This document shows, one piece after another, positions 17,330-30,054 of a stretch of DNA of 58,739 nt. The first letter of the stretch is position 1, and each line of letters starts with the position of its first letter. Source of the DNA: Candidatus Hodarchaeota archaeon. GTDB taxonomy: Archaea; Asgardarchaeota; Heimdallarchaeia; Hodarchaeales; Hodarchaeaceae. The stretch spans positions 1 through 58,739 of the forward strand of contig JAEOTM010000170.1 of the NCBI GenBank assembly GCA_016839815.1, written 5' to 3'. The translations under genes were made by a program, and so were the position numbers. Below the pieces are notes generated by a model. That model searched no databases and had not been told where the DNA came from. It worked only from the letters and a program-made list of their open reading frames with translations.

Positions 17330-18367
17330 ATGGGAAAAGATATCACACGCTCACTTCAACTTACAGGGGCAAGAACATACCTCGTGAGTCTTCCAAGAGA
17401 ATGGATTGAACGAAATGGGTTAGAAGCTAAGGATGAAATTGGTATACGGATTGAAAATGAAACTTATTTACTTCTTTATCCACGAAATCCCCGTTTAGTT
17501 CCAAAAAAGACCACTACTATACCTGAATCCGAAACTATCGAATTAGAACTACTAAGTCGGTATATCACGGGTTTTGACACAATGGTGGTTTATCCGAGCG
17601 AAGGAAAAAAGATTAAAGATCCAGATAAGATTCGAGAGGAAATAAGACATCAAGTTGGATTGGAAATTATACGTGAATCTCCAAATCAGCTTGAAATTCA
17701 ATTTATTGCCACGTCAGTGCTTGACCTGCAGACTCTAGTTCGAAAAATTTATGCACTCTCTTTCAGTATGTTGGATGATGCGATAAGTGCAATTTTTTCT
17801 GGGAATGACGACAAGAAAGATAAAATTGTCAAACGATATTCCGAAATTGATAGAGTATACTACTTTATCGTTCGTTTGCTTCAGAAATCGTTTGAGGATC
17901 CACTGGAAGAAATAAACGAGAGTCTATATCCCTTTGAAGGATTAAACTATCAGATAGTGGCATATCAAGGTGAGGTTTTAGGTCGTTCGTGCAAAGAGCT
18001 CGCAGAACGAATAGGTAAGTTCCAAAAATCATTCTTAACGGTTGAAACAGAATCTATGGTAAAGGAAATCGCTGAAAAACTTATTGAACTACTAGATACC
18101 GCTATTGAGGCTTTCCTAAATAAGGATACAGAGAAAGCCGCGGTTACGGTGGAAGAGGTGAGGAATAAAAAATATCAAGTCCAACCTTTACTCGCAATTA
18201 TTTCAGAGGAGGCAGCTGATGAACCTACTTGGTTTTTAGCTCGATTAATGTCAAGTTTACTTGAACAGGCAGACCAAGTATGTTATCTTACGGATATTGT
18301 GACACGAGGGTTTAACGCATTACATGAATATGATGCTAAACAGTACTTGGATTCAGAGCTTTCTTAA
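17330..18367 (+). CDS. Archaeal AbrB/MazE-PhoU family transcriptional regulator
   Basis: N-terminal RSLQLTG..TYLVSLPREW (AbrB-like), then YITGFD, GLEII.E and PhoU-like helical repeats (EIDRVYYFIVR). Confidence 0.85.
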   Translation: MGKDITRSLQLTGARTYLVSLPREWIERNGLEAKDEIGIRIENETYLLLYPRNPRLVPKKTTTIPESETIELELLSRYITGFDTMVVYPSEGKKIKDPDKIREEIRHQVGLEIIRESPNQLEIQFIATSVLDLQTLVRKIYALSFSMLDDAISAIFSGNDDKKDKIVKRYSEIDRVYYFIVRLLQKSFEDPLEEINESLYPFEGLNYQIVAYQGEVLGRSCKELAERIGKFQKSFLTVETESMVKEIAEKLIELLDTAIEAFLNKDTEKAAVTVEEVRNKKYQVQPLLAIISEEAADEPTWFLARLMSSLLEQADQVCYLTDIVTRGFNALHEYDAKQYLDSELS

Positions 18368-18466
18368 TTTTCTTGTTTTTCGTAGTACTGAAACGTAGAT
18401 ATCAGTTAAAGAAGAATATGAAAGAAATGGTGAGTATTTCTGCATTTTGCGGGTTAAAAAAAATTG

Positions 18467-18490
18467 AACAAAATAAACAGTTATTTTGTT
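18467..18490. promoter_or_regulatory. Perfect 10-bp inverted repeat upstream of the degT-deoC genes (candidate operator)
   Basis: AACAAAATAA-acag-TTATTTTGTT. The repeat is AT-rich, so chance cannot be excluded. Confidence 0.35.
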
Positions 18491-18558
18491 GCCATAACTA
18501 CTAAATGCTTTCTTTACCTCATTTTAGTCAAATCTAAGATATTTGGGTAAGGATTCAA

Positions 18559-19794
18559 GTGGAAAAACCAGCTATTCTTGGTGGAAAACCTACAAGAGAA
18601 ACCATTTTACCTCTATTCGATGTCGACATAGGTGAGGAAGAAGCTAATAATGTTCTCGAGGTTTTAAAATCACGTGATTTGGTACAGACGCATGGAACAT
18701 GGGCTAATCAATTCGGAAAATTAGCTAAAGAGTACCTCGGTAGTAAAAATATTGTCATGGCAAATAACGGAACATCTACAATTCATTTAGCTTTGATTGC
18801 CTTGGGTGTAGGTCCAGGAGATGAAGTCATTTGTTCTCCCCTTGGTTGGATTTCATCAGGTACTCCAAGCTTATACCAAAACGCCATCCCGATCTACGCT
18901 GACGTTAATCCTGATTATGGTTATATTGATGTAGAGGATGTTAAGAAAAAAATTACTCCAAGGACTAAAGCCATCTGTGTAGTACACCCATGGGGATTAC
19001 CTGCAGATCTTGATCCACTTCTTGAATTAGGAGAGGAAAAAGGAATTCCTATTGTTGAAGATGCTGCTGAAGCTTTGGGTGCCACCTATAAAGGGAAGAA
19101 AGTTGGGCTATTCGGAGCTTTTGGAAGCTTCTCAACCGTGTGGAATAAGATTATCACAACTGGGGAAGGGGGATTTCTTGTTACTGATGATGATGAATTG
19201 GCCCGAGTTGCAGGTCATTATGCTAGCTTCGCCAAAGTTCCTGGGAAAGGAGATTATTTTGATGGTTTGGGATATAATTACAGGATGACCGAGATGATGG
19301 GGGCACTTGGAGTGGCACAAGTAAAACGAACAGAGGAAATAATCAAAAAGCGACGAGCGAATGCAGAATACCTTCGGAAACAATTAAGGGCATTAGAAAT
19401 ACAAGGGTTAAATTTACCAACAGAGCCATCTTGGGGACGGGGAGTATGGTGGAAATTTACTGTGTTACTTGATTTGAATTCCTTCTCTGCTTCACGAGAT
19501 GATATTTTAAAGAGTATTCAGGCAGAAGGGATAGGTGCAGCCGCACCTGTATATCCTGATAATTTACAACCATTATATGCAGAAAAACAAGTCTATGGAA
19601 AGACAAAATGTCCATGGGATTGTCATTACTATTCTGGGCCGAGTAATATTGATTATACTCAGATGTGTCCTGAAGCTGCTACATACTCTGATCGGGCATT
19701 ATGGTTAACAGGATGCGGAACTAGGTTAACTCAACCTGATCTGGACTCCATTGTGGATGCTGTGGGGAAAGTACTCCGCTGGTATAGAAAATGA
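18559..19794 (+). CDS. DegT/DnrJ/EryC1/StrS PLP-dependent sugar aminotransferase
   Basis: NNGTSTIHLAL.ALGVGPGDEVI, VEDAAEA, FS..WNKIITTGEGG (PLP Lys present) and GYNYRM. Confidence 0.93.
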   Translation: MEKPAILGGKPTRETILPLFDVDIGEEEANNVLEVLKSRDLVQTHGTWANQFGKLAKEYLGSKNIVMANNGTSTIHLALIALGVGPGDEVICSPLGWISSGTPSLYQNAIPIYADVNPDYGYIDVEDVKKKITPRTKAICVVHPWGLPADLDPLLELGEEKGIPIVEDAAEALGATYKGKKVGLFGAFGSFSTVWNKIITTGEGGFLVTDDDELARVAGHYASFAKVPGKGDYFDGLGYNYRMTEMMGALGVAQVKRTEEIIKKRRANAEYLRKQLRALEIQGLNLPTEPSWGRGVWWKFTVLLDLNSFSASRDDILKSIQAEGIGAAAPVYPDNLQPLYAEKQVYGKTKCPWDCHYYSGPSNIDYTQMCPEAATYSDRALWLTGCGTRLTQPDLDSIVDAVGKVLRWYRK

Positions 19795-28436: not shown

Positions 28437-28616
28437 ATTTTATCCCCAACAAAAGATAGAATTTCATATTTTCTCCAAGAGTATATGAGTGGTTAAATAC
28501 TTGTAGTATAATTCACTCTGTCCAGCTTTGTCTTAATCCTACCAAAACTTAGGCATTCTTATTAAAATTCAGTAATTAAAAATTAGAATAATATGTTGGT
28601 GAATTCTTGTACCCAA

Positions 28617-29039
28617 TCATCCGAGTAAAACCAAAAATACTTGTCTTTCTCGCGCTTCGATATATTCAATGAAGTAAACTCTTTGCCAGGTTCCTAGCAC
28701 CGGCATCCATTCATCCACTCCTAAAAATATTGAGTTTCCAATAATTTGTGATTTCACATGTGCAGCAGAGTCTAAAGGAGATTCTTCGGTATGATTCCAT
28801 TTTCTTGATTCAGGGATTAACTCCCATAGTACCTCAGAAACATCTTTACCTACACCAGGATCAGATCCCTCATTGACTGTTAGTCCAGTCGTTGTATGTA
28901 AACTATAGGCCATTAACAATCCTTTCTTAACTTTACAGGATTTTACAAACTTGATTATATCATCCGTGATATCATAATATTCCCCTGCTTGATTTGTCCT
29001 CACTTTGATATACTCTGTATGAAATTTTATACCTGTCAT
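28617..29039 (-). CDS. yjbQ: YjbQ/UPF0047 family protein
   Basis: DIT, HTTTGLTVNE..DP, AHVKSQIIG and LGTWQRVYFIE...R.R. Confidence 0.9.
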   Translation of the reverse strand: MTGIKFHTEYIKVRTNQAGEYYDITDDIIKFVKSCKVKKGLLMAYSLHTTTGLTVNEGSDPGVGKDVSEVLWELIPESRKWNHTEESPLDSAAHVKSQIIGNSIFLGVDEWMPVLGTWQRVYFIEYIEARERQVFLVLLG

Positions 29040-29238
29040 TATAATTCATCTCTTGATTGTTTTAGCTCCTAAACGAAGATATGTAATTTTCTCCCTAAAA
29101 GATATTATTCTCACTAACTATGTTAGTCAAAATTTATAAGAAAAACTCTTTAGTAGAAAAACAATTACCAGATACGAATTTAATGTAGAATTCAAATTAA
29201 TTTTCCTTCATAATTTATAAAATAACTGTTTAGACAGG

Positions 29239-30054
29239 TTGGGTTTTACTATGACATGCTTAGATGAGATATTCAATGTTACAAAACCGATAATTGGAAT
29301 GGTTCATTTTCCCCCACTTCCTCACACCCCTGAATACGATGATGAAGGTGGAATGGAACATATTACATCAAGTGCAAGACAAGATATTTATGCACTTCAA
29401 GAGGGAGGGATAGATGGGCTTTTGTTCTGTAATGAAGGGGATAGACCTTATGCAAATGGTGTGGACCCTGTTATAGTTGCAGCTATGTCAGCGGCCATTG
29501 GAGAATTAAAACCAGATATTGACATTCCCTTTGGAGTTGACATCATGTGGGATCCTATTTCCGCTATGTCAGTTGCTAAAGCTACTCAGGCGAAGTTTGT
29601 CAGAGGAGTGTTTACTGGTGCATTCGCAGGAGACATGGGTTTTTTCAGTGCACCAGGAGCGGAGGCGCTCAGATATAAGAAAGCAATTGAAGCCTGTGAT
29701 GTGAAAATCTTTAGTATAGTAAACGCTGAATTTGCTCACCCTCTGGATAGACGATCCTTAAATCTCATTGCAAAAGGTGCCGTTTTTGTGGGTATTGCTG
29801 ATGCTTTGTGTGTTTCTGGACCAATGACCGGTATGGAAGCAAAGCTAGAAGAACTAAAAATAGTTCAGGAAAATTCACTCGGGGCAGCTGTGATAGTAAA
29901 TACAGGTGCAAAAAAGGAAAACATTCTAAAACAATTAGAAATAGCTGATGGAGTTATTGTTGGAACTAGCTTAAAATTCGATGGAGACACATGGAAAAAC
30001 GTCGATAGAGAACGCGTTCATGAATTTATGCATGTTGTTAAAACCCTACGTTAA
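29239..30054 (+). CDS. BtpA/SgcQ family TIM-barrel protein
   Basis: KPIIGMVHFPPLP, GGIDGLLFCNEGDRPY, PFGVD, ADALCVSG..TG, NTG and ADGVIVGTSLKFDG. Confidence 0.92.
   Translation: MGFTMTCLDEIFNVTKPIIGMVHFPPLPHTPEYDDEGGMEHITSSARQDIYALQEGGIDGLLFCNEGDRPYANGVDPVIVAAMSAAIGELKPDIDIPFGVDIMWDPISAMSVAKATQAKFVRGVFTGAFAGDMGFFSAPGAEALRYKKAIEACDVKIFSIVNAEFAHPLDRRSLNLIAKGAVFVGIADALCVSGPMTGMEAKLEELKIVQENSLGAAVIVNTGAKKENILKQLEIADGVIVGTSLKFDGDTWKNVDRERVHEFMHVVKTLR

Follow-up and report, generated by a model that had tools for sequence, protein, structure and literature searches.

Transporters of the phosphotransferase system (PTS) are rare in archaea. Gat-type D-arabitol or pentitol PTS, operating with an arabitol-phosphate dehydrogenase, are found in Listeria and Enterococcus. 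The usual reaction of DegT enzymes is the amination of keto-sugars; in the case of NtdA and the inosose aminotransferases the substrate bears no nucleotide. For the SgcQ/BtpA family we know of no solved structure, and its members are annotated variously as chaperone or NTPase. The sgc operon of Escherichia coli, which encodes SgcQ beside a Gat-family transporter, is reported to respond to nitrogen-containing carbon sources (PMC13343008). Its substrate is still unresolved (PMC13343008), as an earlier reading of the DNA studied here, made by a model from the letters alone (the sequence-only reading), had also stated. YjbQ proteins have no assigned physiological role, only promiscuous activities having been reported (PMC3010111). 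Here we analyse an island of 13 intact genes in which relatives of SgcQ, YjbQ and DegT stand together with a Gat-family PTS. The island occupies positions 17330-30054 of a 58,739-nucleotide window (the whole stretch of DNA that was analysed), which is contig C148 of a 4.24-Mb Asgard metagenome-assembled genome (89.5% complete) whose nearest public proteins are labelled Hodarchaeales, Hodarchaeota or Heimdallarchaeota.

We regard it as an even call that an Sgc-type (Gat-family) PTS forms the basis of a mobile, modular island for catabolism at this locus, with SgcQ as the core sugar-phosphate enzyme and two accessory cassettes. The PTS, the deoxyribose-phosphate aldolase (DERA) and the family assignments are ordinary. 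What is unusual is the Asgard setting, the PTS-linked catabolic context of a DegT subfamily, the recurrent association of SgcQ with a kinase or a PTS, and the modular way in which the island has decayed and recombined; the PTS has here been domesticated in the Asgard lineage closest to eukaryotes.

A complete Gat-family PTS in an archaeal island

The PTS relay is complete (EI, HPr, EIIA, EIIB and EIIC) and its phospho-acceptor motifs are intact: GGSASH and CGE (Cys506) in EI, GLHARPA in HPr, ACGTS (Cys13) in EIIB and IPHAE in EIIA. EIIC matches the EIIC-GAT profile PF03611 at 198 bits (cut-off 24.2) over profile positions 3-387 of 394; it is a member of the Gat family (TC 4.A.5), with 32% identity to E. 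coli SgcC and ~33% to GatC. Against TIGR00827 it reaches 298 bits, below the cut-off of 542, the Zn-dependent dehydrogenase of the island likewise scores below the GatD cut-off, and neither GatY nor GatZ is encoded. Because of these three findings a plain galactitol system is excluded, which bears out the earlier expectation that this would not be one.

The island EIIC is 60-100 residues longer than the bacterial Gat/Sgc EIICs. The extension (residues ~430-541, window 22080-22412) is hydrophobic and Trp-rich, and it is kept in the Hodarchaeales copies (517-553 residues).

A conserved core with two detachable cassettes

EIIC was found in seven of 22 genomes of the same genus, and a set of 39 genomes belonging to the class but outside this family contained no copy. 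The island genes stand in the same order in five other genomes of the genus, G005, G010, G016 and G021 among them, and in P0005 metagenome contigs, with 45-94% protein identity among the recurring islands, and because this order recurs the arrangement is not a product of chance. The regulator is the first gene of every copy (77-94% identity), DegT lies directly after it and before EIIC in all copies, the Zn-dehydrogenase always comes directly after the class II gene, and an orphan protein is encoded in every island that carries EI. For all genes tested dN is far below dS (dN/dS ~0.03-0.15, to be taken qualitatively since dS is saturated).

The sequence-only reading had expected degT, deoC, yjbQ and sgcQ to be conserved together with this EIIC clade, an expectation that held in part. 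Island-type DegT (at least 68% identity) occurs in 7/7 genomes with EIIC, always adjoining it, and in 0/15 genomes without; distant DegT paralogues (33-37%) are present in 22/22 genomes. DeoC is found within the island in five of the seven EIIC genomes, the other two (G016 and G001) having a relocated 60% copy elsewhere, and a housekeeping DeoC paralogue (44-48% identity) lies elsewhere in all genomes. YjbQ and SgcQ are both present in six of the seven, with island YjbQ orthologues (at least 64% identity) also in G013. DeoC, BtpA and YjbQ of the island type exist in addition to housekeeping paralogues. What did not hold was obligate linkage: the PTS/SgcQ/YjbQ core can occur without the enzyme cassettes, as in L009, and relatives of SgcQ are not generally linked to an aminotransferase.

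Altogether, the island consists of a conserved core (PTS, SgcQ, YjbQ, regulator and orphan protein) and two detachable enzyme cassettes, the first formed by DegT and DeoC and the second by the class II metalloenzyme and the Zn-dehydrogenase. In the variants L009 and L010 the regulator, EIIC, EIIB, the orphan protein, EI, HPr, EIIA, YjbQ and SgcQ are all intact. In G013 the entire PTS block is gone, and the regulator persists with YjbQ, SgcQ and a DegT stub of 56 residues (L022:9001-9168); a second stub, of 31 residues, lies at L009:9637-9729. These stubs (82-87% identity) mark where islands that are conserved in other respects have lost either the PTS block or the DegT-DeoC cassette. The G002 island ends after EIIB and appears to have been truncated by a mobile element, an IS605 OrfB/TnpB (Cas12f-like) gene being present at L019:1579-2859, followed by housekeeping GatD/GatE.

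We compared window 17330-33566 gene by gene with L009, L013, L014 and L022. The flanks (regulator-DegT-DeoC and EI-HPr-EIIA-YjbQ-BtpA) are nearest to the L009/G002/G013 type (78-94% identity), whereas the centre (EIIC-EIIB, the class II gene, the Zn-dehydrogenase and the orphan protein) is nearest to the G005 type (66-84% vs 47-76% for the other type). By these per-gene identities the window island is a recombinant mosaic, and the pattern suggests cassette exchange between island variants.

SgcQ is probably a sugar-phosphate enzyme

The island SgcQ is 41% identical to E. coli SgcQ over 267 residues and ~50% identical to many bacterial homologues; a search for a solved sequence homologue found none. 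Its AlphaFold2 (AF2) model (pLDDT 94.6) is a phosphate-binding (beta/alpha)8 barrel with invariant polar residues and a Gly-rich beta7/beta8 phosphate motif. The fold matches HPS (Z 18.8), ThiE (18.7), KDPGal aldolase (18.0) and KGPDC (15.8), with GGGPS among the ties, and Foldseek and VIA searches with the model returned tied generic phosphate-binding TIM barrels and no specific family. The predicted fold fits an enzyme that acts on a phosphate ester and does not fit a chaperone or an NTPase. A role as the photosystem I biogenesis factor BtpA was rejected: the score against the NF045918 equivalog is 185 bits (cut-off 400) and the host is a non-photosynthetic archaeon.

Gene neighbourhoods were sampled at 78 bacterial loci (40 in Chloroflexota, 38 in Bacillota; the Chloroflexota tally of 49/301 counts one unpublished genome, G101, on which no claim rests). 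SgcQ/BtpA adjoins a sugar kinase in 50 of these 78 loci (FGGY in 36, PfkB in 14), and the kinases that were typed are XylB-like, just below the XylB cut-off. Because of this recurrent kinase neighbour, SgcQ is best read as a sugar-phosphate enzyme, which it probably is. An APC permease or ABC transporter and an SDR are often present as well, and M42 hydrolases occur in eight of the Bacillota loci. SgcQ stands with Gat-type PTS genes in E. coli sgc, in L011, in the Korarchaeota contig L109 and in L275, which holds a full sgc-like Gat PTS; L011 additionally carries YjbQ, a class II enzyme and a Zn-dehydrogenase. A tight co-directional BtpA-DeoC-SDR run in a Bacillota contig (L302:8970-11261) provides an independent link between the SgcQ family and a DERA-type enzyme, and YjbQ lies near SgcQ in L301 and L304. 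YjbQ is further found in two other Gat-PTS clusters (L011 and L026). The sole type of SgcQ locus with an aminotransferase is L190/L277, which combines BtpA, a kinase, a class III aminotransferase and a Zn-dehydrogenase. Our literature search found no functional assignment for SgcQ, for the BtpA TIM barrel or for DegT in PTS catabolism, and none in the literature on PTS in Hodarchaeales or Thermofilum.

A recurring Chloroflexota arrangement (L236, L238, L242, L247-L251, L257-L265) consists of a LacI/DeoR regulator, an APC-family permease, BtpA, a XylB-like kinase and an SDR. A sugar kinase is an unusual companion for the amino-acid-type permease of these BtpA operons. An analogy with fructosamine (frl-like) systems was considered for the permease/kinase/BtpA operons; the island encodes no FrlB-type deglycase, and the analogy is retained solely within the bolder nitrogen-bearing proposal given below.

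A DegT subfamily in uptake clusters

The island DegT belongs to the DegT/DnrJ/EryC1/StrS family, matching PF01041 and carrying the Schiff-base lysine, not the His of ColD/E1 dehydratases. This pyridoxal-phosphate (PLP) lysine, K197, lies in an FSxxxK...GEGG motif and is invariant across 12 subfamily members. A CPWxCxYY...MCP motif is also present, and the Cys-rich C-terminal extension is covered by no solved structure; members of the subfamily elsewhere share both the extension and the Cys motif. Its closest relative of solved structure is GDP-perosamine synthase (E 8.6e-64, against 1.2e-29 for NtdA). Since the island enzyme is nearer to perosamine synthase than to NtdA, homology gives no evidence for a sugar-phosphate substrate, and by this comparison the enzyme is not of the NtdA/KabA type.

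Outside the island, the subfamily has informative contexts. On L026, an unrelated bacterial contig, a DegT of 40% identity is divergent from a GntR/UTRA regulator and neighbours a Gat-family EIIC, EIIB, a Zn-dehydrogenase, EIIA, an SDR and YjbQ. In the Chloroflexia loci L027, L028 and L045, and in L306, a GntR/UTRA regulator and DegT are accompanied by an ABC sugar transporter, a PIG-L deacetylase, an SDR, a glyoxalase-fold protein and true homologues of UlaE (46%) and UlaF (40%). Judging from gene content, the bacterial members of the subfamily sit in uptake and catabolic clusters that would converge on pentulose phosphates, and not in glycan loci, so that the catabolic setting first proposed for DegT does recur in bacteria, once with a Gat PTS, a Zn-dehydrogenase and YjbQ. 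In a Freyarchaeota contig (L023), a DegT of 48% identity stands between a carboligase-type thiamine-diphosphate (TPP) enzyme and a XylB-like kinase. Among the matches listed from the DegT-alignment scans of genome and metagenome contigs, most were generic DegT paralogues, the informative ones being the Chloroflexia loci and fragments of L026-like contigs.

Two of the ABC-linked clusters (L027:760-11869 and L306:82-5569) hold the transporter, PIG-L, UlaE-like, UlaF-like, SDR, GntR/UTRA, DegT (435 residues) and glyoxalase-fold genes, and look like an undescribed N-acetyl-amino-sugar route that would end in pentulose phosphates. Two candidate connections were discarded. In L027 a gene for GDP-mannose 4,6-dehydratase, situated 4 kb away from DegT, raised the possibility of a perosamine pathway; neither the window nor L026, L028 or L045 has this gene, and it was considered incidental. 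A DegT fragment near a BtpA operon in L285 was partial and weak and was not counted.

DERA, the class II protein and the Zn-dehydrogenase

The island DeoC is a DERA (228 bits against the TIGR00126 equivalog, cut-off 117) with both lysine motifs, FVKTSTG and KVKAAGG, in which the catalytic residues are assigned by motif after E. coli DERA. The class II protein is harder to place. Its best NCBIfam match is OtnC (NF043034) at 127 bits, below the cut-off of 250, and it is not an OtnC member; FucA models also score below cut-off and AraD models far below. It keeps the FucA Glu and three His (Glu73, His92, His94 and His155), FucA Tyr113 is replaced by Thr, the C-terminal tyrosine tail is absent and the phosphate loop reads PAD instead of P[ST]G. 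Aligned with AraD (E. coli numbering), it carries Glu where AraD has the metal ligand Asp76, shows a gap in place of the catalytic Asp120 and stops short of Tyr229. Because Tyr113, the tyrosine tail and Asp120 are missing and the loop is PAD, the protein is neither a canonical FucA-type aldolase nor an L-ribulose-5-phosphate 4-epimerase. The original scheme of cleavage by two aldolases is accordingly doubtful for its second member, a protein without the FucA/AraD tyrosines, with an altered phosphate loop and with OtnC as nearest family below cut-off.

The Zn-dehydrogenase falls below every NCBIfam cut-off (Tdh 208 bits, IolM 172, GatD NF007642 155 vs 550). It is 26% identical to E. coli GatD and hence not a GatD orthologue.

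A possible catabolic route and its alternatives

The sequence-only reading had proposed a catabolic pathway for an amino- or deoxy-polyol imported as a phosphate. That interpretation is partly supported: the enzymes are inherited along with this EIIC clade, and no evidence singles out an amino- or deoxy-polyol as the substrate. In the scheme that we favour, a C5 or C6 sugar, polyol or sugar acid, quite possibly amino-bearing, would be imported and phosphorylated by the PTS, and SgcQ would then convert the sugar phosphate by a reaction of the isomerase, epimerase, lyase or decarboxylase type; in bacteria it would play the same part beside a XylB-like or PfkB kinase standing in for the PTS. The Zn-dehydrogenase may oxidise a hydroxyl to a carbonyl, and the Glu-type class II enzyme may break the neighbouring C-C bond by retro-aldol cleavage or beta-keto decarboxylation. 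DegT would carry out an amino/keto exchange on the sugar or its phosphate itself, in a form that bears no nucleotide, and DERA would cleave a 2-deoxy-aldose phosphate to glyceraldehyde-3-phosphate and acetaldehyde.

An amino-bearing substrate is plausible because of the strict DegT linkage, the L026 cluster, the class III aminotransferase of L190, the APC permeases beside Chloroflexota SgcQ and the reported response of sgc to nitrogen-containing carbon sources (PMC13343008). A bolder proposal, which we hold to be unlikely, assigns to SgcQ/BtpA the catalytic step still lacking in an undescribed but widespread pathway for ketose or polyol phosphates that carry nitrogen (such as amino-pentuloses or ketosamines). 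Substrates would come in by way of a Gat-type PTS or, alternatively, of an APC or ABC transporter working with a XylB-like kinase, and in the Asgard island the new DegT subfamily would strip the amino group directly from the sugar phosphate.

Several observations weigh against the modular catabolic island. Its gene content yields no nameable substrate. In L009 and L010 DegT is reduced to the 31-residue stub and DeoC, the class II gene and the Zn-dehydrogenase are gone, and since these variants keep the PTS, SgcQ and YjbQ, the cassettes are not obligatory for the core; G016 and G001 do without an in-island DeoC. Co-distribution inside one genus is mostly physical linkage among kin and not independent evidence. 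DegT is most similar to enzymes acting on nucleoside-diphosphate (NDP) sugars, and its link to a PTS outside Asgard comes from the single contig L026. The Zn-dehydrogenases and class II proteins of different clusters are ~30% identical, so that their recurrence is at family level, and 76 of the 78 bacterial SgcQ neighbourhoods are without an aminotransferase.

The main rival, possible but in our view doubtful, is a plain polyol system with passenger genes: an ordinary pentitol/hexitol PTS with a polyol-phosphate dehydrogenase, DegT and DeoC serving other ends such as amino-sugar synthesis for glycans or nucleoside salvage. EIIC, EIIB and EIIA are indeed of the Gat family, and a Zn-dependent medium-chain dehydrogenase comes after the transporter genes as it does in gat, L011, L107 and L275; the island enzyme is, however, no GatD orthologue at 26% identity, and GatY/GatZ, RPE and RpiB are all missing from the island. 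The L009 variant, with an intact PTS and neither DegT nor DeoC, would suit passengers, yet it is also without the Zn-dehydrogenase, so its losses do not mark DegT and DeoC as such. Likewise, the best solved relatives of DegT are NDP-sugar enzymes, but nucleotidyl- and glycosyltransferases are absent nearby and related DegT proteins occur in a bacterial Gat-PTS cluster and in uptake clusters. Against passengers speaks, moreover, that the island DegT and DeoC are extra copies tied to the island, housekeeping paralogues being present in all genomes, and that DegT stands between regulator and EIIC in all copies.

That the locus is a decaying, horizontally acquired relic with no working pathway, its gene set reflecting history, is in our judgement highly improbable. 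The patchy spread (7/22 genomes of the genus, 0/39 of other families), the DegT stubs in L009 and G013, the deleted PTS block of G013, the G002 island cut after EIIB by the IS605/TnpB gene and the mosaic structure are what decay would leave. Set against this, the 13 genes are open and collinear in at least five genomes at 45-94% protein identity, every gene has a dN/dS of ~0.03-0.15 (qualitative, dS being saturated), and the PTS phospho-sites and the catalytic residues of DegT, DERA and the class II protein are all kept. An anabolic island, in which DegT would aminate an imported sugar phosphate after its oxidation and so supply an amino sugar or amino-polyol as building block of, for example, a glycan, lipid head group or compatible solute, has in its favour the usual chemistry of DegT enzymes, NtdA and the inosose aminotransferases included, and the possibly biosynthetic pairing of DegT with a carboligase-type TPP enzyme and a kinase in Freyarchaeota L023, but is very unlikely given PTS- or ABC-linked, GntR/DeoR-regulated clusters with aldolases and epimerases typical of catabolism, a DERA and a class II enzyme of cleavage type, and a window from which a downstream transferase or activating enzyme is absent.

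From its gene neighbourhoods SgcQ gains a role that can be tested, namely that of a sugar-phosphate enzyme acting after a kinase or a PTS. A DegT transaminase in the catabolism of a non-nucleotide sugar would, if true, widen the known chemistry of that family, and a defined substrate would bear on the E. coli sgc operon. The nitrogen-bearing route, if true, would supply both a substrate class for E. coli sgc and a function for YjbQ.

Gene inventory and neighbouring features

All genes named in the sequence-only reading were found in place with strong family matches, and two that it had left without a name are the regulator and the orphan protein (Table 1). It had also seen no nucleotidyltransferase or glycosyltransferase nearby, and none is found among the flanking open reading frames (ORFs) tested (7.5-39.5 kb); among the window ORFs, no NDP-sugar genes lie within ~10 kb of the island.

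Table 1. Genes of the island and the gene that follows it (window coordinates).
Feature	Position	Strand	Family match
AbrB/MazE-PhoU fusion protein, presumed archaeal island regulator	17330..18367	+	PF04014 + PF01895
DegT-family PLP aminotransferase, Cys-rich C-terminal extension	18559..19794	+	PF01041, 291 bits
DeoC, deoxyribose-phosphate aldolase (DERA), second island-specific copy	19811..20479	+	TIGR00126, 228 bits
PTS EIIC, Gat/Sgc family, hydrophobic C-terminal extension	20787..22412	+	PF03611, 198 bits
PTS EIIB, Gat/Lac-type	22546..22875	+	PF02302
Short Glu-type class II aldolase-family metalloenzyme	23032..23658	+	PF00596 (Aldolase_II), 177 bits
Zn-dependent medium-chain dehydrogenase, threonine/polyol dehydrogenase-like	23674..24738	+	PF08240 + PF00107
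Orphan protein, 351 residues, two predicted membrane helices	24803..25858	+	no family match
PTS Enzyme I (EI)	25919..27646	-	PF05524, PF00391, PF02896
HPr	27684..27965	-	PF00381, 93 bits
PTS EIIA, Fru/Mtl/Gat type 2	27978..28436	-	PF00359
YjbQ/UPF0047, island-specific paralogue	28617..29039	-	TIGR00149, 114 bits vs cut-off 68
BtpA/SgcQ-family TIM-barrel protein, divergent from yjbQ	29239..30054	+	TIGR00259, 251 bits vs cut-off 153
1143-residue protein, weak alpha-amylase catalytic domain	30135..33566	+	PF00128, E 7e-6

The orphan protein gave no sequence match in Pfam, NCBIfam or the PDB. It forms two full-length clusters only among 1.8 billion representative proteins and is confined to the island clade. 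Its AF2 model (pLDDT 80) has a helical N-terminal part followed by the predicted membrane helices, and the C-terminal domain weakly matches Nuc, Zucchini and TrmBL2 (Foldseek E ~4e-4, TM 0.5-0.6); this PLD/Nuc-like domain is without the HxK motif.

A search of the island intergenic regions for a shared operator returned just AT-rich sequence with TATA-like AAATTTATAAG elements. Such TATA/BRE-like elements (AAATTTATAAG and variants) lie in window 20480-20786, 22413-22545 and 29040-29238, 5' of EIIC, of EIIB and of the divergent yjbQ/btpA pair, which suggests that several archaeal-type promoters are present inside a bacterial-type gene set.

The 1143-residue protein has no NCBIfam match. It comes after BtpA in L009 and G013, staying with SgcQ in the latter after the loss of the PTS, and its place is occupied by a HAD hydrolase in the P0005-type island; its membership in the pathway is uncertain. 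Upstream of the island, the window encodes an AAA_15/AAA_21 ATPase of 569 residues whose TOPRIM domain is OLD-like (GajA/OLD nuclease type, 11972-13681) and, after it, a 249-residue protein without family match (13746-14495); the two may form a defence gene pair.

Comparison with known systems

The E. coli gatYZABCD system, like the D-arabitol/pentitol PTS, resembles the island in that a Zn-dependent medium-chain dehydrogenase, expected to act on a polyol phosphate, comes after a Gat-family PTS. The gat system differs in its GatY/GatZ tagatose-bisphosphate aldolase and in its dehydrogenase and EIIC, those of the island lying below the GatD and TIGR00827 cut-offs; neither the gat nor the D-arabitol systems have counterparts to the island DegT, DERA, SgcQ and YjbQ. 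With OtnC/YgbL, the 3-oxo-tetronate 4-phosphate decarboxylase of the class II aldolase family, the island class II protein shares its short length, the lack of a C-terminal tyrosine tail, the Glu and three His and a dehydrogenase partner, whereas its score (127 bits vs 250), its 29% identity to YgbL and its altered phosphate loop set it apart, as does an island without OtnK kinase or OtnI isomerase. The kanosamine-6-phosphate aminotransferases NtdA/KabA and the inosose aminotransferases are of the same PLP fold type and family as the island DegT and give a precedent for a DegT enzyme whose substrate, a sugar phosphate or cyclitol, is free of a nucleotide handle. These enzymes are, however, biosynthetic, and in comparison with NtdA/KabA the island DegT is much nearer to GDP-perosamine synthase and carries a Cys-rich extension.

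The L-ascorbate ula/sgb route (UlaD decarboxylase, UlaE, UlaF) offers a parallel for the proposed order of reactions, its PTS product passing through a keto intermediate and C-C cleavage or decarboxylation to pentulose-5-phosphates. A TIM barrel that binds phosphate performs the cleavage or decarboxylation there, SgcQ is similar in fold to HPS and KGPDC, and the bacterial DegT clusters hold true UlaE and UlaF homologues. In contrast, the island EIIC is of the Gat and not the SgaT type, UlaE and UlaG are missing from the island, and its class II protein is not a UlaF/AraD-type epimerase.

E. coli sgcXBCQAER likewise joins Gat-family EIIC, EIIB and EIIA to an SgcQ/BtpA-family protein (SgcQ 41% and SgcC 32% identical to the island proteins). 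The island is without SgcE (an RPE homologue), SgcX (an M42 hydrolase) and the DeoR-type SgcR; no PF00834 (SgcE) or PF05343 (SgcX) protein is found among its ORFs, and both occur in the sgc-like L011 and L275. Unlike sgc, it adds DegT, DERA, a class II metalloenzyme, a Zn-dehydrogenase, YjbQ and an orphan membrane protein, and it has its own EI and HPr together with an archaeal AbrB-PhoU regulator.

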